From a virus (taxonomy: Duplodnaviria > Heunggongvirae > Uroviricota > Caudoviricetes), in the IMG/VR virus record IMGVR_UViG_2602041669_000011: a DNA stretch of 55,530 nucleotides. One strand, given 5' to 3'. This document shows positions 1,305 to 53,569 of this stretch, piece after piece. The notes beneath the pieces were generated by a model, which was not told the origin of the DNA, ran no database searches, and saw only the letters and a program-made list of their open reading frames with translations. Made by a program: the position numbers and the translations under genes. Position 1 is the first letter of the stretch; every line of letters starts with the position of its first letter.

Positions 1305-4300
1305 TTATGCGTATTGTTGGATGACGGCCAGAACGTCCGCCACGTTGTGTTTTGTCTCGATAATCCACCAGTTACCCGGGAAATCGCTGTTCTTCGCCTT
1401 CGCTGGCAGCCAGCGAGCGCCGAATTTCGCCTTGATTGCGTCTTTCGCACGGAAAAGAACGCCTTTCATGCCTGAGGCTTCCTGAAGCCCAAATACCTCG
1501 CCAGCGGCGAATTTTGGTGCGTACATCATCTTCAGGTCGGCGGTGGATACGCGATAATTCAGACCAAGAGACTGAGCTATGCTGGTGGCATCACCCTGTA
1601 TTGATGATAACTCTTCTTGTTTCTCGTTTCTGGCGGCAATCTCTTCCTCCGTGATGTTGCCAAGGGCCAGGTTTATCCGATCAGCGTCGGCCTGTTTCTC
1701 TTCATCGGTGCGCCCGGCAAGAACCGTGTTAATTCTCTGCAATATCTCCACATGATTCTTGCGCATGCTGAGCAATTCCGGCGTAACCTCGTTAAGATCC
1801 ACCAGCCCAAGGATGGCAAGGTCGGAAAACATTGATACCAGGTTGTAGGTCATGCGATAGCTGAGTTGACCATAGGCTGATGGCAACTGCACCGCATCCA
1901 TTTTATAGGCATCCATAAATTTAGAGCCGTCGTTTACGACATCCGCAATTGCCGGTGTGATTTTTCCTGTGGTGGCGGCCTCCCTGATTGCTGTTACCCA
2001 CGATTGAGTCAGCGCGGAAACTGCATGATTCAGATTGGCTTTGCGTTCTGCTGCAATGCGCGCGCTTGCAGCGTCCATTGACTGTTTGATCTCGTCTTTA
2101 TTGCTGTAAATGCCAATGGTGCCAAACTGTGCTGTGGTGATCTCATAATCTGACGCCCGGAACTCATTGGTACCGAAAATGGCATTGGTGACTTCAAGTT
2201 CAGAATCCCCGTTACGAGTAGCCCCCTGGCTTGTTTTTTCCGGCATTCTGGCGATCGCATCCGCTATTTTCTCCTGAATTGCTTCAGGGGATAGCGTATC
2301 TCCGTATGACGCGATTACATCGCCATAATTGGAGCCAAACAGTTCAACCAGGAATGTTTCTGCCGAACGGATCTGGCGGTTATTCCCTTCCGACATCATA
2401 CCAAGCACCCATTTTGCAATTGACGACTTCAGCGCGCCGTCACGGCGATCCGGGTAAACCGCATGCTTCAGTGGGTCCGTATAGGTACCAACAAAATCGA
2501 TGCTATAGCCTGACTCTGTAGTCTGAACGCCGTATGAGTCAGTGATTTTGATCATGCCGCGCTGCTGGAAACGGTAGAAATCGTCACAGGAAATGATGTC
2601 GTTAATCCCGGCGATGGAGACGCCACCACTGATTTTCTGCATAACAGCATCTTCATCGGGAGTTACATCAACCTGTTTATCCAGCGTCTTCACATCCCAG
2701 TTACCCGATTTGGTACCTTTGAAGGTAAAGATAATCTCCACGTCTGCGCGCTGGCTGTCGAAGTCCAGCGACTTAATGCGAACGATATCACCGGCACAAT
2801 CGTAGTATTGGCCTACACGCCATGAGCGATCGCCGATAACAAGGAACTCACTCGCATGGTTAACCAGGTCAGGATCAACATCCAGAATGCCTTTATTTAT
2901 TGCATCCTCCACCAGCGGGCGCAGGCGTTTGATATCCGTCGCGGCCTTCTGAGTACGGTTCAATAATTTCTCATAGCGGGAGATGGCTTGAGAGATATTA
3001 GCCTTGCGCTGAATGGCGCTTTTCAACGACGCGCGATACTGTGCTAACAACGTACGGTCTGTGTGATGGACGCTACCCCAGCGGGCTTTCCAGTCTGCGT
3101 TATCAGCTGCTTTGGCCATTACCGCCTGTTTGAATTTAGCTACCTCGGCGGTGGTCTTTTCAAGTTCCGCTTTGCTTCGCTCCAATTCAGCGGTAAGTAC
3201 CTCCACATCCTCACCAGCTGCGTGCTGCGCCTTGATGTAGTTCTGAAGGTCGATAGTAGCCTGTTCTTTCTGGCGAGCGCGTTTCGCAGCTTTCGCCTTA
3301 TCCATTTGAACCTGCATCATTACCAGACGTTCGCCGTCATCCTTCGCGGTATACATCTGCATTTCGATCATGTCATTGGCGTCGGCGTTCTCCATTTCTG
3401 ACTTATCTGAACGGAGGATATCGGAGATCCAGCCTGCTTTACGCTTCAGCGTCTTCAGTCGGTATTCATCGAAAGACCCCTTGCCGCAGTAGTAGTGAAC
3501 GCGAACGCTTGCACGGTTGGAGCCAACTCGTGCACCGCGACCGTTACGTTGTGCGATACTGGCTGGTGTCCACGGCAACGTCAGGTGGTGGATATCCGTC
3601 GTTCCTCGATGCAGGTTGATACCCACCTCTGCCTTTTTGTTGCAGATGATGATCGGAGTCCGGCCCTCCTGGAAGTCGGCAGCAATCTTTTCCAGCCCAC
3701 CCAGCGACATTTCATTTTGCTGCGCGATATAGGCGTCATACAGAGCCATTTGCTCGTTGTATTTCGCTATCTGTGCATCTGTTGGTTCATCCGGTAGCTC
3801 TTTCGGCGGTTTAACCGCTTTCAGTTTCTTACCGGTTTTACCTGCCTCGGCAACCGTCTGAGCATTCAGGATCCCCACCTTTGAAGGTTCAAGGTTAAGA
3901 GCATTGCAGATAATGCGCTTGAGCTTCTGGTGTTGCGTTTTTTCATCGGTGAAGATGATTTGCTTACCTTCCGGGAAAAACTCCTTCAGCGTGGCAATCA
4001 GCTTCGCGTATTTGGGCGTAACGGGGTGAGTTACGGTCTGTTCGTCAATGCCAAACTTGGCCAGGCGCTTATTCACTTCCTGCTCAAATGCTTCCGGTAC
4101 CTGCAACTGAATAAACTCGCCCTTATCTATCAGGGAGTATTGCGATTGCTGCGTGATCGAATCATCACTGTCGTCGTCTTCGCTGGTGGCTTGTTTAGGC
4201 AAACTGTCCGCCAGCTGCTGCACCGCATCGGCGTACTCCGGCAGGAAACGATAGGTGATCCTGCGATAGTACAGGTCCATGTCAGTACATACGCGGTCCA

Positions 4301-7300
4301 TATCCCTGATTATTGAGAAGATCGGACGGGCTTTCTCGTGCTCAATCACGCCGTCTTCATTGACCGAGGTCGTTACGCCATTGTTGGCTTTGGCTGCCGC
4401 TTCCGCCTGCTGACGCAATTCTTCATACGCCGCCAGTTGTTCTTCCGTAAGTGGTGCATCCTGCTGGTGTTCGTCCAGTTCCGGGATCTCCACGGTATCC
4501 TTAACGTCTTCCGCCGTTTTAAGCGTTGTCCAGCGATGGAATATGCCGCGCAGCGCATCAAGGTTTTCAAAGCCCACCAGCGCCATTTTTTCTTCAACTT
4601 CACCGCTGATTTTCTGTACCGTTTCCAGCCTGGTCTTGCCGAAGAATTTAACGAAGTCATCAGGACCGTAGATCCCCATCTTCTGCCAGTATTCCTTCGG
4701 CAGCACATGAGAAAGCATGTTGTATGCATCGATCGGGGTGTTAACGACTGGCGTTGCAGTCAGGAGAACCGGTCCGCGCCCACCATTCTTTTTCATCAGG
4801 TACGCGTTTTTAATTGCCATATCCCGCGCCGATTGCGCCACCGCGCTGGTGGGCAGATAGGCCAGTTGTGACGCTTCGCGACCATTTTTATAGCTATTGC
4901 GGTAGTTGTGACCTTCGTCAGCGATCACACTATCGAAGCCCATATCCTCAAAGTACGGATACTTCTCTGCTTTTTCGGTGCCGGTATCTGAATACTCCGA
5001 CAATACCCGGCGACGCGCGGCCTCTTTGCGGTGGGAGTCGGAGTCCATTGCGCTGGCTACGCGCCCGGCGGCAACGAAGTCATAAAGCATATCCTGTGCA
5101 TGCTCATCTACGGTGTCATCACGTAGCGGAATGCGGGCGTATTGTTCTTTGGTAAACACGACTGCACGGTAATTTGAGTGCGGGATCGCGTTCATCCGCG
5201 CCGTGATAGTGGCTTCATCTGCCAGTTTTAGGGCATCGCGCATAACTGGAGTGCCATCAGTACCAAGAACAGGTTTACCGTTCTCATCGAGCACCGGCAC
5301 CTGGCGAATCTGATCGCCATCCATCAGCACATCAAGACCGACGAACAGGTAGTTACTGAATGCCTCTTCACTCAGGAATTCTTTTGCTTCGTAATACCAG
5401 TTTTCCAGCACTGATTTAGGCACTACATACGCAGTACGGGTGGAGCGACCGTTCTCATAGTTGAACGCCTCAAGCGCCAGCGCGGTCGTAGTTTTACCCA
5501 GCCCGGTGCCGAAGCCCAGGATGCCGCGCCCATCTTCGGACAGTCGGCGCACTTCGCTATTCTGGTAATCAAATGGCTGGCGCTTACCGCTTAATCCCTT
5601 CAACCCAAGCGGATCGCCAGAGTGTTCATACGGGATATTGCTATTGAACACATCGTTGTATTTGGCAACCAGTTCATCGTAGCGATCGTGCGTCTTGATC
5701 CACTTATTGAACTGGTCCTCAAGCAGTGCCATCTGCTCGCGGTAGCCGTTCGCCGTCGCGCTATCTTTGCCACCGATACGCGCACCATTGAGATACTTTT
5801 CCAGCTGTGCCGGGAACCCGGTCGCGTTTTCACCTGATTTACGGTCCCACTCGTAGCGGATCTCGCCTGTTTCTTTATCCTTGCGCTGGACGACACCGTA
5901 TCGGTGCCCGACGAACAGGCCATCACCACCGTGATAGGTGTCAGAAACCATTTCGTCGCCTTCCAGCTGCACTGACTGCACATAGCGCAGATCCGGATAG
6001 CCGTTTTCCTGCAAAAACTCCAGAATGACGGAACGGTCGAACCAACGGCTATTGAGCTTAAACCGGATATTCTCTGCTGGCGTCTTGATGCGCTTCTCTT
6101 CGATCGCTGCCAGCTGATTAAGGACGTTGTTCTTTACTGGACCGTCGGGGAGCGTGGCGAGGAATTCCTGTTTTGGAGCCACTATCTCGTTAATGTCGCC
6201 GCTGGTGGCGCGGGCGAACGGAACAATCCCGCCATACGGTGAAACCGCAATACCAGGAGTGCTGGCCAATAAATTAAGCAACTCTTCATCACTGGCTGGC
6301 AATTCGCCGGTAAACGCAAGGCGGAAATCATCGAGCTGGATTGGATCGCGGGTAAGATCGCTATAGAGATAACGCAGGGTGTCCTGATAGCTGGTGGAGT
6401 CATAACTGGCGCTGGAATCATGCGTAACCAGCTTTCCTGTCAGCTCGTCAGAAATAGTGCCATCCAGCTTAATTGCACCACGGAAAGCAAACCAGGCGCG
6501 CGCACCGCTTCCCGATAATTTAGCTATCGGACCGCGACCAGGGTTACCAAAACGGTCAATCTCTGCCTGCAAACGGGATACCAGAGAAAGGCGCTGCTGT
6601 TCGATTTGTTCAGCACTATGCCCGGCGGCCTTCATATCCTGATATTCAATTAACATCCGGCCAATCATCGCCCCACGATACAAGCGTTCACGGTATTTTT
6701 CAGGCTGGCTGTTAATCCAGTCCACCAGCTGCACCATATCGTCGCTGATTGATGTGGTGTACTTATCGCGGACATTTGCCATCTGGGTAAATGTCATACC
6801 GAGACGGCCTTCTGTTGTAGTCAGGTTACGCTGAAGAGCCTCCCAGCTATCCGCGCCATAACTGGCAGCATCAATTTTAAGTTCCTTCCCGGCATCAGCT
6901 TCAATCCAGCGACCACCAGCATATTTTTGCCATACGCCATTAATCAGGCGCATTTCCCCTTCACCAACAACGTCTGCGGTCAGTGACGGTTCAGCCATAT
7001 CGAGCAAAGACCAGTCGATACGGCTTTCGAAACGATGAATCAGCTTCGCTTTAAGAGCCTGGTTATCAATCTGACCGTCGGCACGAACCTCAATACGCCC
7101 CTGGAAGCCCTTTTCCTGGGTGCCATGAACAAACCGGCGGCCATCCTTTTCAAACCACTTGCCAGAAATAAACGTTGGCCAAAGCACATTTGCCGATTCA
7201 AGAGTGCTTTCATCCACCAGGGGGATTTTCTCAGCCATCTCTGCCGGATGTTTGCGCATCAGCACCACATCAACGACTGTACTGGTCCCGTTTGCGTCAA

Positions 7301-45113: not shown

Positions 45114-46841
45114 TTACTCAGAGTCACCGGCATCAATCGTGTCGCCGCTTATGAAGTTAAGCCCGCCTTTTTTGGCCATTGTCAGCGTTACACGAGTGAA
45201 GTAATCAGCGCCGTTGCGTGGGTGCATATCGTTGATAGCCGAACCCCACAGTGTGGTACGGTTGACCAGCGCCGGAGTGGTCGGATGCTGGAACGGGATA
45301 GCCGGGACAGCATCACCAGTCACGAAGCCTGCTTTACCCGGATTTTCATCACGGACGTAGCACAGCACATCCATCGAGCTGAACTGAATGTTCTCTGTCG
45401 TTAAGTTCTTACAAATACCAGCAGGTACTTCGTACACTTTCACGTTACCGAACAGGGTACCGATGTAGTGAACATACGGAGTCTGGATATAGTCTTCGGC
45501 TGGCTGGAAGAAATCCTTCGGCAACTGTTTGAAGAAAGATGCTGCATCAGCACCAGCAAACATCCCCATCGCACCAGAAGATTTAACGCGCTCAATAATG
45601 TCGCGATATACAGTCTGGAATTTGCCACGAATGATGGTTGCCCATACATTAAAGGACTGGTTAACCGGCAGAGCGATGTCAAAGGTGTCGGTCGCAAGAG
45701 TACGCCAGATCATGATGCGAAGACGCAGCATATCCTGTTCATGAGACAGGTATTCCTTCAGGGTGCGGAACTGTAGGGAACCCAGGTCCAGACCAAATTC
45801 ACGCTGTGCTTCATACGCCGCCTGTACCGTGTGCTCAGCCGCGATAACGAACTGACTTGGGAACAGGGTGTATTTCTTCATTTCGTGGTTGATCAGCGGG
45901 ATCAGCTCAGGTGCGGCTTCAATATTGATTTCCGTCTCAATTGCGATCTCAGTGCCTTTATCCGGCGCTTTGGAGAACGACAGGGCAATCTGACCAATGT
46001 TGTAGTTCAGAGAGCAGGTAACAGTGATTTGCTCACCAGCAGCATTAGTAAACGAGTGAAGTAGGCTGCCGGAACCGTTATCAACAACAGACTTAATACG
46101 GTTAACGTAGATGTTAGTGCGACCTTTTCGGATTGGTACATTCTGGCCTTCGAAGTCTTCCATCTTGAAGGTTGCGGTTTTGCTGGTGCCATCGGAGCTT
46201 GCCACCAGCACATAGCGGCGACGTAACTGGCTGTACACACCAACGGATTGCATGTCCAGAACATCACCAGCAGCATAAGAACCAAAAGAGGAACCTGCCA
46301 CGTTAAAGACTTCATAGATGTCGGACTGGTCACGCGTAACCGGAATGAAGGTACACGCATCAGCGGTAGCTGCCCCCAACTGAACAGGCAGGATCATCGC
46401 GAGGAATAAAGGCAGACGCATAACACCGTCAGAAACGCTCATCATCTCTGCTGCGACGGATTCCAGCATCGCTTTATTAGTGGCATCCATGCTATTGCGG
46501 GTGGACTCAATCAGGCAGTTTTCCAGCGTCTGGTGGCAGGAGGCCAGAATTTCCGGACGCGGCATAGATTTATGTGCTGCGGCGTAGTCAGCCAGTGCAC
46601 TTGCCCACGCTGTAGCGATTTGAGCGGTGGCATTATCAGAGATACCCGCAAAAACCGGGTCTTTACGTGCAGCTTCAAGGATAGATGCGGCACGCGCGGC
46701 ATCATCTTTAATGAATTGGTTATCAGTACCGAACTGCGCAGTGCTTGCCCAGCCAAGCACAGCTTTAGAGCGTTTTGCGATATCTGCAATACGATTCTGG
46801 TATTCGCGTAAGTTACTCAATTTACTCTTCCTTAAACACAA
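45114..46841 (-). CDS. Major capsid protein
   Basis: 575-aa ORF, first gene of the leftward structural operon next to parS; size and order consistent with P1 gene 23. Confidence 0.55.
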   Translation of the reverse strand: MCLRKSKLSNLREYQNRIADIAKRSKAVLGWASTAQFGTDNQFIKDDAARAASILEAARKDPVFAGISDNATAQIATAWASALADYAAAHKSMPRPEILASCHQTLENCLIESTRNSMDATNKAMLESVAAEMMSVSDGVMRLPLFLAMILPVQLGAATADACTFIPVTRDQSDIYEVFNVAGSSFGSYAAGDVLDMQSVGVYSQLRRRYVLVASSDGTSKTATFKMEDFEGQNVPIRKGRTNIYVNRIKSVVDNGSGSLLHSFTNAAGEQITVTCSLNYNIGQIALSFSKAPDKGTEIAIETEINIEAAPELIPLINHEMKKYTLFPSQFVIAAEHTVQAAYEAQREFGLDLGSLQFRTLKEYLSHEQDMLRLRIMIWRTLATDTFDIALPVNQSFNVWATIIRGKFQTVYRDIIERVKSSGAMGMFAGADAASFFKQLPKDFFQPAEDYIQTPYVHYIGTLFGNVKVYEVPAGICKNLTTENIQFSSMDVLCYVRDENPGKAGFVTGDAVPAIPFQHPTTPALVNRTTLWGSAINDMHPRNGADYFTRVTLTMAKKGGLNFISGDTIDAGDSE

Positions 46842-46952
46842 GGCACTTGTGTGAATCCCTTTTCGGAAGAGATTTTATTGAAAGTCACTTGTTGACTTTC
46901 TCGTGACAAGCAATTTTTTTATTTTTTTCGGGAGTAGGGGAGGAAGGTAAAA

Positions 46953-47041
46953 TCCAAGGTGAAATCGTGGCGATTTCACCTTGAAATTTTAGAGAGATTC
47001 ACTTTAAAAACAGTAGGTTAATAGTGAAATTTGAATGGCGA
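46953..47041 (-). promoter_or_regulatory. parS: parS partition site
   Basis: Heptamer ATTTCAC/GTGAAAT and hexamer TCGCCA/TGGCGA boxes flanking an AT-rich IHF-like core, directly downstream of parB. Confidence 0.7.
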
Positions 47042-47045
47042 AAGT

Positions 47046-48047
47046 TTAAGGCTTCGGCTTTTTATCGAGGCTCTTTCTAAGGATATGCCCAATCATCCTG
47101 TCGAGTTCTTCCTGTAACTCTTTTGAAAGTCGATTAAACTCATAAGAAAATGCACGGCCTTTCACGCGCTTCCTTGCAAAGCGATCCTTGTCCTCAAATT
47201 TCCATAATTCAGTAACTACGGACTTATCTTTAGAACCTTTATCCGTGAGTAGTGAGGCTTCCTTTGTTATCAAGCGCAGGATTTTATTTTTAACTTCATC
47301 TTCGGCCATTTCTTCAATGGATAAGATGTCGTTTATTTCCGGGGATATGTTTTGAATAAGCTGATCAAACTCTAAATTCTTGTTCCCCATTTCGTCGCCA
47401 ACAGCACAAAGCGTTTTGTAGTCCGAAAAGGTTAATTCCGACTGCACAGGGAAAAGGGCGACTAATTCTTCCGGAGCACTCGCTGCCTGGAGAGCACGCG
47501 TGACCTTCGCCTGAGATAGCCCTTCTTTGGCTGCAATATCCTTCTGACTCATCCCATCATTTTTCATTCGCATCAAACGCAGACCTATTTCTCGAATGCT
47601 GTGCTGCAATGCTGTCTGAACGTCTTTAGCTAAATTTTGCGCTTCCTGAACGCTGATCTCCTGGTCCGTGACTAAAACCCGCAACCCTACGTTCTCTAAG
47701 ATGGCAGAAGCTCGACGCCGGGAACCATCCAAAATTTCAATTTTCCCTGTAGCCCGTCTAACACCTATTGCAGGGTAAAATTGCTGATGCTTAATAGTGC
47801 TTCGGATACTTTTTAATGATTTTGGCGTAAGAGATGCCTGGTCACGCCCGTTGTTATGCTGATCAACAAAGGTATCGCTTTCTACCTGGTTCGGAGGTAT
47901 TACCTCTTCAATAAATGTGGCCTGGCGACCAGTTGATAACTTGAATACCTGCTCGACTCGATCGCCAGAGGCTGAAGAACTATCAAATCCGCTTAATATT
48001 GAAGGATTAAGGGTTCGCCCAATTGTTGGTCTGTTTTTCTTTGACAT
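47046..48047 (-). CDS. parB: ParB partition protein (333 aa)
   Basis: 333-aa ORF downstream of parA with HTH region; parS follows. Confidence 0.85.
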   Translation of the reverse strand: MSKKNRPTIGRTLNPSILSGFDSSSASGDRVEQVFKLSTGRQATFIEEVIPPNQVESDTFVDQHNNGRDQASLTPKSLKSIRSTIKHQQFYPAIGVRRATGKIEILDGSRRRASAILENVGLRVLVTDQEISVQEAQNLAKDVQTALQHSIREIGLRLMRMKNDGMSQKDIAAKEGLSQAKVTRALQAASAPEELVALFPVQSELTFSDYKTLCAVGDEMGNKNLEFDQLIQNISPEINDILSIEEMAEDEVKNKILRLITKEASLLTDKGSKDKSVVTELWKFEDKDRFARKRVKGRAFSYEFNRLSKELQEELDRMIGHILRKSLDKKPKP

Positions 48048-48063
48048 GGGGGTTTCTTACTCC

Positions 48064-49260
48064 TCAGTTAGATCTGATAAATTCAATACGGTCAAAAACT
48101 GCTTTAGCAAAATCTTCCGCGGCAATTCGCGCGTTCTTCAATGCATCAGCACTACCAACATACGTTGCCGGGTTAGCTGAAATAACAGTGTCAAAAGACT
48201 CGCCGCAGCGTTCAAAACCGTCAAGGCGAGGGAGGACGACATCAAGCATATCCCCACCGAACACTTCTTTAGCCAGGCTATGGCAATACTTATGATCTGC
48301 CTTGTTACTCAACTTGGACATAAAACCAATGTTAGTCGCAAGCTGGCACTCGCAGCCTTCATCCGAAATGAGTTTTACCAACTCAGGAAGGCGGGCAACG
48401 TATTTAAGCGATGAGTGGAAATCGACAGTTGCTGGCGGCAGAGGTGTAAACAGTATATTGGCCGAGGCCAAAGCATTTTTCAGGAAAGCGTCAAGGTGAG
48501 GACCACTATCAACGAGGATAAAGTCATAATCGCTCTTCAGCTTATCAATCACATTTTCTTTCAGGACAGCATGGATGTTCTGACCCGGTAGATGCTCATT
48601 GCACAGCTCTCTCCAATCGGATGCAATAAAGGCATCGTCAATCGACGCAGGCATAACGTCAACCCCAGGTACAACAGAAGGAACAATAAACTCCTCTAAC
48701 AGCTCTTCACGGCTTACATTCTGCAACATAGCCTGTGCAGATGTTGCGTTTACGATACCAATAGAGTGTTTATGGCTTAAAAACATCGTTGCTGAAGATT
48801 GCGGATCAAGGTCAATAACCAGAATCCTTAAATCTTCCATCAGAAGATGAGGGTGAGCACGCATTGCATGCGCCAGAGAAACCGTCGATACAGTTTTTGA
48901 CACACCGCCTTTAAGATTGGAGATGAAAATCACATATGCTTCGCTGTAGCGATCCCGGTATTTTGGCACTCCGCGATGTTCATATATGTCAATGATGTTC
49001 TGAATTGACATCGCATATTTCATTGAAGAGCCAGCAGGGCGTTTATCGAAAACATAACCCTTTTCTTCCATTTCACTTACGGCATAGTCAACGTTCGCTC
49101 GAGTCAGTAGAGGCAATTTTGCCAGTGCCGCTTTCGCATAGACCTGGTAAAACTCGTTCGCGTGTAGCTCATCCTTTTGCAACTGTACTTGTTCAGTCAG
49201 AACATTGAGCATTCTGTTTGCTCTTTGAGCAACCTTGTGAAGCTGGCTGGAATCACTCAT
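48064..49260 (-). CDS. parA: ParA partition ATPase (398 aa, type Ia)
   Basis: Deviant Walker A KGGVSKT; long N-terminal DNA-binding extension typical of P1/F ParA/SopA. Confidence 0.9.
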   Translation of the reverse strand: MSDSSQLHKVAQRANRMLNVLTEQVQLQKDELHANEFYQVYAKAALAKLPLLTRANVDYAVSEMEEKGYVFDKRPAGSSMKYAMSIQNIIDIYEHRGVPKYRDRYSEAYVIFISNLKGGVSKTVSTVSLAHAMRAHPHLLMEDLRILVIDLDPQSSATMFLSHKHSIGIVNATSAQAMLQNVSREELLEEFIVPSVVPGVDVMPASIDDAFIASDWRELCNEHLPGQNIHAVLKENVIDKLKSDYDFILVDSGPHLDAFLKNALASANILFTPLPPATVDFHSSLKYVARLPELVKLISDEGCECQLATNIGFMSKLSNKADHKYCHSLAKEVFGGDMLDVVLPRLDGFERCGESFDTVISANPATYVGSADALKNARIAAEDFAKAVFDRIEFIRSN

Positions 49261-49398
49261 CGAAAGTCATCCTTTATGCTGTATTTTTGAATTTAATTAA
49301 AAATGATGCATAAAATAATAATGTATGCGTAGATGCTTGTACATGGCATTCTCTGCATGTTTTGTTCATTTTGCACGATTGAGAGTTACAAGAAAGGC

Positions 49399-49421
49399 AC
49401 AAAAAAGCCCCGTTCAGGGGC
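49399..49421 (-). terminator. Rho-independent terminator after the GIY-YIG-like gene
   Basis: gcccc-tgaac-ggggc hairpin followed by TTTTTT on the minus strand. Confidence 0.6.
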
Positions 49422-49428
49422 ATCAGTG

Positions 49429-50238
49429 TTATTTGCTAAGAGCAGCGAATAATCGTTCGAAATCGATAGTATCTATAGCACGCGTAAGCGCCGGAAGTTC
49501 AGCCTCAAAGTACCCGTGTCGATCGTAAAAGAAGGGACCGAAGAGCGAGGCATGTTGGATTCTACTTCGCCCCAGCCCGGACACACAGTTAAGCCCATTA
49601 CCGGCTAAAAGGCTAAAAAACTTCTCTGGATTATCGTGGTAAAGCTGAGAATCAATGGTGGCGGTTAACTCTTCCATAGGGAAGCACACCCGCCCTGTCT
49701 CCCAGGGATATTTAGTCCGAAGCATAAACATTGCTTTCAGCAATTCACATTGAGCGCGGATCGCGTCCGGTTCATAGCCAGATATGGAGACATAAGCCAC
49801 GTCCCTCATTCCTGCGTCATCTTTGAAAGTCACGATAGAAGTAACATCCAGTTCTTTTTCGAAAGAGCGAGCAGCATCTACTGGACGCTGAAGTAAATCA
49901 TTCGACTTAATGCGCTCGAGAATCCCTCCCCACATATCATTTAGATATTCGATATGAGCCAAAACCTTATCAAGACACTCTCGTGTAAACCATTCAGTAT
50001 GCCCGCCACCGGCGCTTTTCTCCCACGGCGCATTCCAGGGGAAAAAGGTTGCGTGTAAAGCCCGCTCAAGATTAACCATTGCCAAACGCGTACCACGATA
50101 GACCCGTGAAAGCGCAAAATCGGGACTCACTTGTAGCCCTTTAAACCGTGCCAATGGACCACATGAAATGCCGATTTTAAAAGTATCTCCGTTCTCCGGC
50201 ACCAGAACGTAGAGGTAGTGTTGTTTCTCTTCTTGCAT
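49429..50238 (-). CDS. T5orf172 / GIY-YIG-like domain protein (269 aa) inserted between incA and parA
   Basis: N-terminal YLYVLVPENGDTFKIGIS ... R ... HTEWF pattern resembles the T5orf172 (GIY-YIG superfamily) domain; own terminator. Confidence 0.55.
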   Translation of the reverse strand: MQEEKQHYLYVLVPENGDTFKIGISCGPLARFKGLQVSPDFALSRVYRGTRLAMVNLERALHATFFPWNAPWEKSAGGGHTEWFTRECLDKVLAHIEYLNDMWGGILERIKSNDLLQRPVDAARSFEKELDVTSIVTFKDDAGMRDVAYVSISGYEPDAIRAQCELLKAMFMLRTKYPWETGRVCFPMEELTATIDSQLYHDNPEKFFSLLAGNGLNCVSGLGRSRIQHASLFGPFFYDRHGYFEAELPALTRAIDTIDFERLFAALSK

Positions 50239-50254
50239 ATCAATACCACTGCTT

Positions 50255-50530
50255 GATGAGAACCGCGCAAATGTTGACTATGCGCGAAGGTTAATGTGAA
50301 TAGTTGACTATGCGCGATGTGACTACAGTCAAAAGTTGACTGTAGTCGATTTAACTCCACCAAAGATCGACTATGTAAGATATTGTCGGGAGAAACGTTG
50401 ACTATACGCGATGAAATGACCCTAAAAGCCATCTCAATAGCGACTTGCAGAATATTGACACCAGCAAAAATCCACCAGCGTCAACGAATGTCGCCTATAG
50501 TCAACTTCTCGCTATCGCATATAGTCAATA
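50255..50530. repeat. incA: incA iteron array (about 9 RepA-binding repeats, both orientations)
   Basis: Repeated core ...TAGTCAAC / GTTGACTAT... at roughly 20-30 bp spacing downstream of repA. Confidence 0.7.
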
Positions 50531-51472
50531 TTATGGATTGCGCTTATGGATCTGAAAGCCGATTTTCCTGCCGTTTTTTATCTCTGAAAATTTAAGATAT
50601 TCAATAGCTTCCAAATCTTTCATGGCTTTTCTGATAACGCTATTTTGCACGCTAACGGATGATTTGAGATTAAGCCTTGCTCTAAGGCGCTCAATGCTGA
50701 CAGGTGCCGGGTTGGCGGGTAGAGCCTCAAAGAATGTATACAGTACCTTGGCCGTCTCTTTGCGCCCGAGCTTATCCAGCATCTTCAGCTTCAGGATTCG
50801 CTTATAGTCAACATAGTAAAGTTCAGATAGCTGTTTCTGCGGCTGGATCTCGATAACATCAAGCTCGGTATTCAGGCTGCTATATGCCAACAAGTTGACG
50901 TTAATGTTATTGAGATGACCTTTTGCCGCCGGGAAGCGGAATTTGACAACTGTCTGCTGAATGCGTGTCAGAGAGTCATCAATACTTTTACGGAACGCCT
51001 TTGAAAGGCGCTTACGTGGATAGCCGCATCGATCGGCAAACTCGGAGAATGGCAGGGTGATTATGCCGTCATCATCAGGTGCGTAGTCAAACAACGCGGA
51101 GGTTATGCCCACCCACACCTTAAAATCAGTATCCATATCCAGGCGTGGACCATGAATTTCAATTCCCTCATAGCCTTCCTGCTCAACAATTTTGAGGCTT
51201 GATAGTTCTTCGGTTGCGTTCGTTGTGTTTGTAGTAACTGACGATCCGCGACGTAGTGCCACATTGGTAGATTTTAAGGTTGGCACAAACACACCTAAGC
51301 GCAACAAAGCAATGGGTTGTATAGTGCTATTGTTATTGGGTTTCAGGCTGTGGATTTCTCCTGTATTTCCTGCAACTTCTTCAACGCTAAGGAAGCCTTT
51401 ATTTTCTTCCAGCATCGTGGTTTCTCCATATGTGGCGCGGCCTGGCGTCATCTGGATTGCAGTTATCAACAA
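50531..51472 (-). CDS. repA: RepA plasmid replication initiator
   Basis: ORF flanked by iteron arrays on both sides; conserved blocks QPIALLRLGVFVP and GPRLDMDTDFK; exact start uncertain (alternative Met codons). Confidence 0.8.
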   Translation of the reverse strand: MLITAIQMTPGRATYGETTMLEENKGFLSVEEVAGNTGEIHSLKPNNNSTIQPIALLRLGVFVPTLKSTNVALRRGSSVTTNTTNATEELSSLKIVEQEGYEGIEIHGPRLDMDTDFKVWVGITSALFDYAPDDDGIITLPFSEFADRCGYPRKRLSKAFRKSIDDSLTRIQQTVVKFRFPAAKGHLNNINVNLLAYSSLNTELDVIEIQPQKQLSELYYVDYKRILKLKMLDKLGRKETAKVLYTFFEALPANPAPVSIERLRARLNLKSSVSVQNSVIRKAMKDLEAIEYLKFSEIKNGRKIGFQIHKRNP

Positions 51473-51489
51473 CTGTGAATAGTCAGGCT

Positions 51490-51600
51490 CTAAAATCGCG
51501 TACAGTCAATGTTTCTGTCGCATATAGTCAACAATAAATCGCGTGCAGTCAACAATAAATCGTGCACAGTCAACATAAAATCGCGTATAGTCAATGTTGA
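51490..51600. repeat. incC: oriR / incC iterons (five direct repeats of about 21 bp)
   Basis: aaatcgcgtRcagtcaacaat repeated five times upstream of repA. Confidence 0.75.
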
Positions 51601-51748
51601 TCCCATTTCAGGCCAGAAATGGCGCGGCTTACAGCGATCCGGGATCTTCTTTGGATCTTCCTGGGTTCTCTTTAGGATCTGTTTATTGGATCTATGCTGT
51701 GGATAAGTTGAATAAACCGGCCAACATAGCCGGTTGGAAGGAAGGGTA

Positions 51749-52141
51749 TTATTCTACGCTTTCGATAAGAAGACCATGTTCATAACATTTAAGCTCATCG
51801 CCTTCGTACAGGAATTGGTATCCAATACCACCATTTTCATGGACATTAGGGAATAACTCATAACTCACTGAAGAGCAAATCACACCAATGCAGCGATCAA
51901 CGCCTTCTCGTTCTTCAGTGCTGAAAAAATCCTCTTCGGTAAGAACATGAGTACATTGCTCATCAGCATAGGTCGGAAATACATGCTCGATGCAATCCGG
52001 GTGTTTTAAACCAAGCTGATCGGCAAGCTCGAAAGCATGACGGTATTGTTCAGATCCTGGCTTGCCAACAGTGATGTGCTCAATTTTGTAGATTGAAGTC
52101 GCTTTGTTGATAGTTTGCTTTACTGTTACTTTATCAGACAT
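51749..52141 (-). CDS. Hypothetical protein (130 aa)
   Basis: ORF with RBS; no motif recognised. Confidence 0.45.
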   Translation of the reverse strand: MSDKVTVKQTINKATSIYKIEHITVGKPGSEQYRHAFELADQLGLKHPDCIEHVFPTYADEQCTHVLTEEDFFSTEEREGVDRCIGVICSSVSYELFPNVHENGGIGYQFLYEGDELKCYEHGLLIESVE

Positions 52142-52152
52142 AAAAATCCCTT

Positions 52153-52485
52153 TTAGTTACCGCTGATAGCGCGGTTGTAATCATTAACGTTGCGATTCTT
52201 CCTGTTAATCCCCATCAGCATCGTTTCTGTATCGAGGATATACGCTGGCAGATCATCAAAATATTCACTGCTAAACTCTGGCATCCTGCACATAAACGCA
52301 CTTTTGGGGGCAGGGTGGTTAACCTTTGTCGGCGTCGGCGTTAAATTCGCTGATCGACTCCCGGAGCAACCGCTGAGTGTCAGCAGGAATGCGCTGGCGA
52401 ACATTACCCGCCGCAACCAGTTGTTTCTGAACTTCAGCTTTTCGTTCCATTTGCCTGTCAGCATATTTGGCTTGTTCTGATTCAT
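52153..52485 (-). CDS. mlp: Outer-membrane lipoprotein, o-spanin (Rz1)-like; true start probably internal
   Basis: Lipobox LTLSGC followed by Pro-rich mature region (TPTPTKVNHPAP); gene overlaps the 3' end of the upstream i-spanin-like gene in another frame. Confidence 0.55.
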   Translation of the reverse strand: MNQNKPNMLTGKWNEKLKFRNNWLRRVMFASAFLLTLSGCSGSRSANLTPTPTKVNHPAPKSAFMCRMPEFSSEYFDDLPAYILDTETMLMGINRKNRNVNDYNRAISGN

Positions 52486-52741
52486 TTTTCACTTCCTGGC
52501 TGTGAAAATGTTGCTCTGCTTTGTTCATCGTCTCAATGGTCTGGTTAAGATCCATTATTGACTTATCACGTTCCTTAACAGCCTGATCAAGACTGCCAAT
52601 TTTCTCCATGGCTTGCTTTAGCTGATGACGTTCCCATGCAAACCCAGCACCAACAAGTGCGCAAATCAGAACAAGAACACCAGTAGCAGCAAGTTTCTCC
52701 TTCAAAGACAAAGCTGTTTTTAACGTAGAAAAGAATGACAT
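52319..52741 (-). CDS. ppfA: i-spanin (Rz)-like protein: N-terminal TM anchor plus periplasmic coiled coil
   Basis: Start at MSFFSTLK with GGAGG RBS; TM helix (ATGVLVLICALVGAGFAW) then a charged helical domain; overlapped by the lipoprotein gene. Confidence 0.5.
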   Translation of the reverse strand: MSFFSTLKTALSLKEKLAATGVLVLICALVGAGFAWERHQLKQAMEKIGSLDQAVKERDKSIMDLNQTIETMNKAEQHFHSQEVKNESEQAKYADRQMERKAEVQKQLVAAGNVRQRIPADTQRLLRESISEFNADADKG

Positions 52742-52780
52742 GTCTTCCTCCTGAAGAAAAATTATCAATGAAGTCCTTTG

Positions 52781-53569
52781 TTACCGTGCCGCTTTGTTTA
52801 ATTCATCAAGAACAGAATCAGGAACCAAAGCGGCGACTGCGCTGGCTGTGCTGGCCTTATTTGCTGATGCTTCCGCAAGCGCGGTACCGATAGCATGGTT
52901 ATAAGCAGTTATGGCTACGTTGGCGCTTTCATTCGCTCGTTCATACTGCTGTTGTAACGCAGTTGTGGGTGCTGTTGTCTGGTTGAAAACAACCCCAAAC
53001 TGTTCAGTTGCTACTTTCAGAGATTCAATTTGCTCTTCTGTTAGTGCTGGTGGGGGAGTGGCAGTGCCGCCGCCTGAACCAGAGCCTGACGAGCTTTCTG
53101 AGCCAGTGTTAAGGGCCTGGTTAATCTCCCCCATTGCAGCGACTAAACTTGATGTATTAAGCGCGTTAACAGCGTCCTCAAGCGATTTAGTAATATTCAC
53201 ATCACCAATGGCAATAGAGATCGGCAGTTCTGAAACTTCTCGCTCATTAGCACGGCAGTAAACATCCCAACCAATATCGAGTTGAAGCAGCATTGACAGA
53301 TCTGCATAACCAGCCAACAGGTCCGCGTGCTTAGTTGCCAGTTCTCCAATGTTCGTTAAGCCGGTTGTGGTTGTTCTGATCGTTGAAACATAGCTGGTAA
53401 TAGTGTCGGGATAGACAATTGTATCCAGAATTAATCCGGTCAATTCTTCTGCAAGCAGTTTTGCTGTGTTAGCACTGTTTCGTGCCGATGTTATGGCACC
53501 AGGTGTTTTCATCCCACCGGCGGCGGCCAATTTTTTATATGCGGATAACTGGTAGTCTTTTTCCAGCAT
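52781..53569 (-). CDS. Hypothetical protein with Ser/Gly-rich linker (262 aa)
   Basis: ORF 52781-53626; start at MLEKDYQ (53569) avoids overlap with the upstream gene. Confidence 0.45.
   Translation of the reverse strand: MLEKDYQLSAYKKLAAAGGMKTPGAITSARNSANTAKLLAEELTGLILDTIVYPDTITSYVSTIRTTTTGLTNIGELATKHADLLAGYADLSMLLQLDIGWDVYCRANEREVSELPISIAIGDVNITKSLEDAVNALNTSSLVAAMGEINQALNTGSESSSGSGSGGGTATPPPALTEEQIESLKVATEQFGVVFNQTTAPTTALQQQYERANESANVAITAYNHAIGTALAEASANKASTASAVAALVPDSVLDELNKAAR

Follow-up and report, generated by a model that had tools for sequence, protein, structure and literature searches.

A putative T5orf172/GIY-YIG-type nuclease gene at the junction of replicon and partition modules in P1-like phage-plasmids

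In E. coli and Salmonella, resistance genes commonly travel on P1-like phage-plasmids, which are typed as IncY or p0111. In the T4 SegA-G and I-TevI endonucleases an N-terminal GIY-YIG catalytic domain and a C-terminal DNA-binding domain stand apart, connected by a linker, and the Seg-type genes of T4 are intergenic, present in some and absent from other close relatives, and located beside essential genes. In ICP1 and other phages, T5orf172 homing-endonuclease genes adjoin essential genes and mark the boundaries of genetic exchange, and 87% of phage T5orf172 genes come with zinc-finger modules, namely CapR, DUF723 or DUF4397 (Barth, Dunham and Seed, 2023, PMC10448857). The ICP1 nuclease Odn (gp88) combines a T5orf172 domain with a RepA_N-like DNA-binding domain, 42% identical to PLE RepA_N; it cuts the iterons of the PLE origin, an attack that PLE evades through replicon module swaps (Barth et al., 2021, PMC8263062).

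Here we analyze a 269-aa open reading frame, referred to as X, in the Caudoviricetes record IMGVR_UViG_2602041669_000011, the full 55,530 nt of which are called the window. Like SegA-G and I-TevI, X is predicted to place the nuclease domain first, followed by a linker and a separate C-terminal domain, and its gene is intergenic and present or absent among relatives. Unlike them, it takes its nuclease domain from the T5orf172 branch, the sequence of its C-terminal domain resembles no described DNA-binding module, and its host is the maintenance region of a plasmid-prophage rather than a lytic phage gene cluster. With the T5orf172 endonucleases of ICP1 and other phages it shares the Pfam nuclease domain, and the BFVD fold matches of X are such proteins, but X matches no zinc-finger or CapR-type Pfam family. 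With Odn it has in common the T5orf172 domain including a corresponding glutamate, a setting of iteron replicons and module swapping and, according to the structural model, perhaps a Rep-like fold of the C-terminal domain. The domain order differs, however, with DNA binding before nuclease in Odn (one relative scanned) and nuclease before a predicted winged-helix-like domain in X. Furthermore, X has no sequence similarity to RepA and is encoded inside the replicon cassette, whereas Odn is encoded by the attacker of the replicon.

The genes repA, X, parA (48064-49260) and parB (47046-48047) all lie on one strand (Table 1). The first-pass annotation had described a 269-aa ORF with its own terminator between the incA iterons and the parA promoter; the ORF list and the repeat and terminator scans agree with this description, and the interval it had marked (49399-50254) comprises the ORF together with its terminator and leader. 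The start codon of X in the ORF list of the window is ATG, and the leader contains a weak Shine-Dalgarno sequence. The terminator hairpin (49421-49407, minus strand) begins 8 nt past the stop codon and reads GCCCCTGAACGGGGC then TTTTTTGTGC, a GC-rich stem followed by a T-run; a similar terminator is found 3' of the X homolog in locus L005. Terminator and downstream motif can be aligned between the two (window 49364-49428, TCAATCGTGCAAAA, against L005 5990-6060, TCAAACGTGCAACA), unlike the X genes themselves, which are too diverged for blastn.

Table 1. Features of the replicon-partition region and of gene X in the window (coordinates in nucleotides of the window).
Feature	Coordinates	Strand	Basis
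parA and parB, P1 type	47046..49260	-	identity to P1 proteins, Pfam
par promoter/operator region, common to P1 and window	49261..49362	-	98% identical to P1 Ppar/ParA operator annotation
Replicon cassette substituting P1 incC-repA-incA, with X at the parA-proximal edge	49363..51611	.	blastn against P1
X intrinsic terminator	49397..49421	-	terminator scan
Gene X, 269-aa T5orf172/GIY-YIG-type two-domain protein, intact allele	49429..50238	-	ORF list, Pfam, PHROG
C-terminal domain of X, residues 128-269, sequence orphan, predicted winged-helix-like	49432..49857	-	
Predicted flexible linker of X, residues 115-127	49858..49896	-	pLDDT <50 in alignment-based model
N-terminal nuclease domain of X (by sequence), residues 1-114	49897..50238	-	
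Leader, 32 nt, last incA-like iteron to X start codon	50239..50270	-	sequence
incA-like iteron array 3' of repA, at least 6 copies, two orientations	50269..50529	.	repeat families D1, D2, D4; sequence
repA, p0111 type, Rep_3 family, 294 aa	50531..51415	-	Pfam Rep3_N and Rep3_C
Origin-side iterons, five copies, ~21-bp spacing	51491..51598	.	repeat families D1, D5

Between the repA stop (50531) and the start of X, iterons with the core TTGACTATnCGCGA occupy 50269-50411 and 50489-50529. Within this array, at 50321-50349, two iteron cores in head-to-head orientation, 3 nt apart, create a perfect 12-bp palindrome (GACTACAGTCAA ctt TTGACTGTAGTC). An iteron-like sequence, ATTCGCTTATAGTCAAC, also occurs inside the repA coding region (50796-50812; 82% to the reference iteron copy), and the equivalent place in the 84%-identical repA of L003 (7609-7630) holds an iteron-like sequence as well. 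Between repA and X, scans of the coding strand found neither a sigma-70-like promoter nor a terminator, and there is no Rfam match in 49200-51800; the par promoter is predicted at 49343 to 49315. As X lies 3' of repA on the same strand without a recognizable promoter of its own, we infer that it is co-transcribed with repA through the incA iterons, at a low level in the plasmid-prophage state, with transcription ending at the X terminator.

The replicon in which X resides is not that of P1. In a blastn comparison of the window with P1 (NC_005856), homology is confined to 46501-49362 (99.3%) and 51612-52999 (95%), and for the 2,249 bp in between (49363-51611) the only P1 match is a single 59-nt fragment at 76% identity. 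The swapped block takes the place of the P1 incA, repA and incC iterons, with the DnaA-box/GATC part of oriR and the Ppar/ParA operator retained. ParA and ParB of the window are 99.7% and 100% identical to their P1 counterparts, respectively. Neither of the two marks of the P1 (IncY) replicon, a P1-type RepA and 19-bp iterons, is present: RepA is 41% identical to P1 RepA, and the iteron core named above stands against the P1-type TGTGTGCTGGAGGGA, the latter as in L004. The block 49363-51611 is found at 98.6-99.4% identity in RCS47, SJ46, JL22, phi456 and others, and by its sequence the replicon of the window is the known p0111 type of the P1-like phage-plasmids RCS47, SJ46 and JL22. Its name presumably derives from plasmid pO111_2 of E. 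coli O111:H- str. 11128. The exchange itself is published, with a repA' and an 'unknown gene gp57' in place of the IncY repA (PMC9603915), and the literature on p0111-type replicons treats the companion gene as unknown.

The premise of the first-pass annotation that the flanking replicon is that of P1 does not hold. Its proposal that X was inserted into the P1 maintenance region is correct insofar as the gene is extra relative to P1, but the whole iteron-repA-incA block is exchanged; X is not an insertion into the P1 arrangement because the entire replicon block has been replaced by a p0111-type Rep_3 replicon. Nor is X a core gene of P1 and its relatives as a whole: P1 itself lacks it, while all sampled close relatives of p0111 type carry it, some as a pseudogene. 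The X protein is encoded in 401 PLSDB plasmids, always at 90% identity or more, and the window-type RepA in 398 at 80% identity or more (366 at 99% or more), a ratio of about 1:1; the P1-type RepA is present at 99% identity or more in 373. By these counts X is a near-constant part of the p0111 replicon cassette. The MOB-suite typing in PLSDB calls the window-type replicon 'IncHI1B', which looks like an annotation error.

A repeat search of the window yielded no direct repeats, target-site duplication or inverted repeats bracketing 49363-50270 and no transposon-like ends at X. Insertion by an IS element or transposon was rejected, as there are neither terminal inverted repeats nor a target-site duplication around X. 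The target-site duplication or homing-site remnant that had been proposed as a mark of insertion was thus found neither at the flanks of X nor in P1. The sole pair of edge repeats (49357-49387 and 51551-51581, 74% complementary) probably arose by chance, since it brackets the whole cassette and overlaps an iteron. No remnant of X was detected by tblastn in the P1 incA-Ppar spacer (all E-values >0.1). An empty homing site in the same spacer was considered and discarded, the 11-of-13-nt match to the leader being equaled by 158 of 2000 shuffles.

An exhaustive HMMER search against 1.84 billion representatives recovered full-length relatives of X in only three more lineages. The homolog of L003 (P0004) is 44% identical to X and accompanies a p0111-like RepA (84%); that of L004 (P0010), from Salmonella enterica, is 28-30% identical and occurs with a P1-like RepA (83% to P1) and P1-type iterons; that of L005 (P0011) is 25% identical over a full-length alignment, with BLAST-detectable similarity (39%) confined to the N-terminal domain, and is found with a third RepA type (43-48%) and a third iteron sequence. 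All three align with X from end to end and are situated between repA/incA and parA of P1-like elements, and the distance from the last incA iteron to the start of X is 20-32 nt in all four lineages (20-26 nt in L003, L004 and L005). The slot spans three unrelated iteron types and two partition types. L005 pairs X with a P7-type par operon, its ParA being 98.5% identical to that of the P7-type element L112.

The boundaries of the slot coincide with those of exchanged segments. L003 and L004 have flanks 96-98.6% identical (ParA 99.7%) and differ in exactly the iteron-repA-incA-X block, which repeats the swap between P1 and the window in a second backbone; in both backbones the cassette swaps end 66-84 nt past the X stop codon. 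In elements lacking X (P1, the P7-type L112, and L163 and L174), incA is joined straight to the par promoter, and homology between them and the elements with X (window, L003, L004, L005) restarts 43-66 nt past the X stop, just beyond the X terminator. X is accordingly polymorphic for presence at one incA-par junction, though the adjacent replicon always differs too. On the other side, IncY elements carry ParA of either P1 or P7 type (58% identical to each other), and the breakpoint between the two par types coincides exactly with the end of the final incA iteron (L112 4858-5275 versus L001 (P1) 5271). About half of the elements with a 100% P1-type RepA (L112-L177) have a P7-type par operon, in which the pair ACGTGCAA...TTGCACGT resembles an operator inverted repeat. 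Because divergent X homologs occur across three iteron and two par types while P1 and P7 do without X, the slot is the place where the iteron replicon meets the par operon, each being exchanged independently of the other, and the incA-par junction serves as breakpoint for par-module and replicon swaps alike. X is thus a discrete unit of ~1 kb, consisting of leader, ORF and terminator, that is dispensable to the replicon.

No X homolog is present in 68 IMG/VR loci retrieved with P1 RepA (most 100% identical, some only 41-86%). PLSDB holds no X homologs other than the window type; the P0010 type is absent from both PLSDB and the phage collection, and no PLSDB relative of the L004 cassette, with or without X, exceeds 77%. 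No two of the compared elements differ in the presence of X within a replicon that is identical in all else, which leaves the left junction of an X 'insert' undefinable. Two elements with a non-P1 backbone, L105 and L106, have a p0111-like replicon, with RepA 85% identical and the iterons matching up to and including the last incA copy, but lack X. In its place (3885-4420, IMG/VR) they contain copies of GGGCAATT(N3-4)TACACC, two of them as an inverted repeat, followed by ORFs on the opposite strand; these copies may be a different partition or binding site. The nearest relatives sharing only the N-terminal domain stand alone as genes of 290-330 aa in mobile or defence-like settings of other kinds (L007, CP168302.1 3783-7983; L008, 3635-6233; L006, 3516-4990), one each beside Mrr_cat and WYL, after GmrSD_N, and by an HTH repressor and toxin-antitoxin genes.

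Residues 8-85 of X match the Pfam family T5orf172 (PF10544) with 27.5 bits (curated cut-off 20; E 4.6e-6), whereas X stays below the cut-off of the related family MUG113. For the C-terminal half there is no match in Pfam, NCBIfam or PADLOC. Both halves of the protein had been read in this way from the letters alone, the N-terminus as T5orf172/GIY-YIG-like and the C-terminal domain as unrecognized. PHROG 2876, of unknown function, matches X over its full length, and RefSeq relatives are annotated 'GIY-YIG nuclease family protein'; the record of phage phi456 (OR339795.1) labels X 'terminase small subunit', which looks like an annotation error. At each of ten positions of the domain (Y10, K21, G23, R31, E58, H62, G79, E82, W83 and F84), 93-99% of 73 N-domain homologs have the conserved residue. 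X has all ten, including the tyrosine of the GIY-like strand, the K-x-G motif, the arginine, the Glu/His helix and the Glu-Trp-Phe element, and they are invariant in 52 natural X alleles. Residues 4-62 align with residues 115-184 of Odn, within its T5orf172 domain, placing E58 on Odn E180, the residue changed for the catalytically dead control (PMC8263062). The sequence thus points to a two-domain gene of the T5orf172/GIY-YIG nuclease type, and the domain identity supports the nuclease reading because the Pfam score exceeds the threshold, the ten residues are invariant and E58 corresponds to E180.

We used an AlphaFold2 model built on the four-lineage alignment (mean pLDDT 74); a single-sequence model (pLDDT 35) was discarded. 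The model comprises a nuclease domain with the GIY-YIG alpha/beta fold, a low-confidence linker and a separate winged-helix-like domain, for which the winged-helix scores are weak. Confidence within residues 128-269 mostly lies at pLDDT 75-89, with dips to 57-68 at residues 141-150 and 221-240. The top PDB matches in Foldseek are all Rep_3 initiators, namely the WH1 domain of MSBI1.176 Rep (E 0.02, probability 0.96), RepE54 (E 0.07) and the WH1 domain of pPS10 RepA (E 1.3); none reaches E 1e-3. Profile comparison of X with five RepA types by hhalign revealed no similarity (probability 0.1%), a PDB sequence search gave only a weak GIY-YIG match (1ywl, E 0.15), and a profile of the C-terminal domain against the C-terminal parts of ~70 distant T5orf172 proteins returned nothing significant. 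The model suggests that the C-terminal domain is likely a winged-helix-like DNA-binding domain; its resemblance to Rep WH1 is a lead only.

To assess the constraint on X in the context of its neighbors, we compared 40 loci in which all four genes are intact, drawn from the window, IMG/VR and the genome collection and retrieved with X itself without selection on X divergence. The ratio piN/piS is 0.28 for X (23 protein alleles) versus 0.025 for repA (4 alleles), 0.002 for parA (2 alleles) and 0.028 for parB (5 alleles), placing X ~10-100 times above its neighbors; a further dN/dS sample, biased in that loci were picked by amino-acid divergence of X, gave the same result. Between the window and the L003 type, identity drops from 89% for ParA and 84% for RepA to 44% for X. 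Premature stops occur in eight of the 52 full-length alleles: S112* five times (pO111_2 included), Q228* (SJ46), W68* and R224*; beyond these, a frameshift disrupts one allele and IS1 truncates another. The nonsense alleles are found in L023 (pO111_2, NC_013370), L050 (SJ46), L022, L026, L028, L029, L056 and L014, and pO111_2 and SJ46 represent ready natural knock-outs of X. Given the piN/piS value, the nonsense alleles and the invariant active-site residues, X is under selection, but weakly so, and is frequently lost. In parA, parB and upfA there are no fixed differences between IncY and p0111, and identical alleles are common to both groups. Linkage disequilibrium is low throughout (mean r2 0.03-0.07 between genes), with four-gamete violations even within genes. 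A recombination hotspot at X was therefore rejected; with linkage low everywhere in the region, recombination is pervasive and not demonstrably focused on X.

The reading we favor, at a probability of roughly 45%, is that X is a free-standing site-specific endonuclease, a passenger at the replicon-par junction with a homing-like or competition role; a selfish-nuclease or conflict role is the best reading of the data. The N-terminal catalytic domain would cut, and the flexible linker would join it to a lineage-specific winged-helix-like domain providing target recognition. X would not be part of the replication or partition machinery; it arrived in the window with the p0111-type cassette that displaced P1's own. 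When two P1-like elements meet, X would cut related DNA that lacks X or bears another cassette, and recombinational repair would then copy X and the linked replicon into the rival, such that X would behave as a homing endonuclease or in marker exclusion, as the Seg enzymes do in T4 and the T5orf172 endonuclease genes in ICP1. Once fixed in the p0111 lineage, it would drift and often be inactivated. X is considered accessory because P1, P7-type and other elements as well as the non-P1 element with an 85% identical RepA do without it and because nonsense alleles are frequent, yet it is still a gene, since its piN/piS is below 1 and four lineages have kept it at full length. Its position at an exchange boundary, with replicon swaps ending just past X and the par swap breaking at the last incA iteron, agrees with that described for phage T5orf172 endonuclease genes (PMC10448857). 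Cassette boundaries would, however, fall in conserved flanks with or without a nuclease, the described phage genes usually bear zinc-finger DNA-binding modules unlike X, and the coexistence of IncY (without X, ~373) and p0111 (with X, 398) plasmids is evidence against an efficient one-way drive.

A different target is conceivable if X resembles Odn more closely. The Rep WH1-like C-terminal domain would then bind iterons or pair with RepA and so direct the nuclease against the origin or incA of rival plasmids and phage-plasmids, with exclusion at the level of the replicon as the outcome. The precedent of Odn and PLE, the Rep_3 initiators among the Foldseek matches, the start of X within a few tens of nucleotides of the terminal iteron in every lineage and its location where replicon modules are swapped all speak for this; yet X resembles none of the five RepA types in sequence, the structural matches come without aligned residues, and a nuclease reading the iterons of its own replicon would destroy itself, leaving the idea rather improbable. 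We would give similarly low odds to the extended version, in which X is a replicon-embedded killer or homing nuclease that reads iterons or docks to RepA through a Rep WH1-like C-terminal domain, cuts rival or X-less cassettes and drives replicon turnover. If true, it would drive the turnover of IncY, p0111 and type 3 modules in co-resident P1-like elements through an Odn-type mechanism acting between plasmid replicons instead of between phage and satellite, and no nuclease before X would have been shown to serve a plasmid incompatibility module as a weapon of its own.

It is also unlikely, if somewhat less so, that X guards the lysogen against unrelated invaders as an anti-phage or anti-plasmid exclusion nuclease of the plasmid prophage, with no homing involved. 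X has the orientation of the maintenance genes that are active in lysogeny, its fast evolution and frequent loss are typical of defence genes, and of its distant N-domain relatives one lies beside Mrr_cat and WYL and another near GmrSD_N; but no PADLOC-DB 2.0 model matches it at E up to 1, the slot offers no partner, sensor or immunity gene, and the full-length relatives all occupy one slot of one element family rather than defence islands. A domesticated DNA-binding regulator tuning repA/incA copy control or par expression would fit a gene that directly adjoins the iteron array and the par operator and is probably co-transcribed with repA, and CapR, among the T5orf172 relatives, shows that a domesticated endonuclease relative can work as a repressor. 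Such a role is very unlikely given that the catalytic residues are fully conserved across family and population, that P1 and other replicons function without X, and that ~15% of natural alleles are nonsense alleles whose plasmid or phage record is complete in every other respect. The premature stops, the frameshift, the IS1 truncation and a piN/piS an order of magnitude above that of the neighbors could finally be taken to mean that X is a relic in decay and no longer has a function; this is just as unlikely, given a piN/piS that still indicates purifying selection, active-site residues that never vary and full-length ORFs kept in four lineages despite 25-44% identity.

The replicon swap as such is already known, and X is annotated as a GIY-YIG nuclease family protein in hundreds of records. 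In the searchable literature we found no description of the four-lineage family or of its fixed slot by the terminal iteron across three replicon and two par types, nor of the nuclease-first winged-helix-like architecture, the relaxed selection and the natural null alleles of X. The p0111 replicon travels near-constantly with a putative nuclease gene whose active site is conserved, and homologs share the slot in other replicon/par combinations. If X does not cut rival cassettes, it is still a well-defined orphan nuclease with the natural knock-outs S112*, Q228*, W68* and R224*. If it does, this would explain the exchange of replicon modules among P1-like elements and would extend the concept of Odn and the homing endonucleases from lytic phages to the maintenance regions of plasmids.
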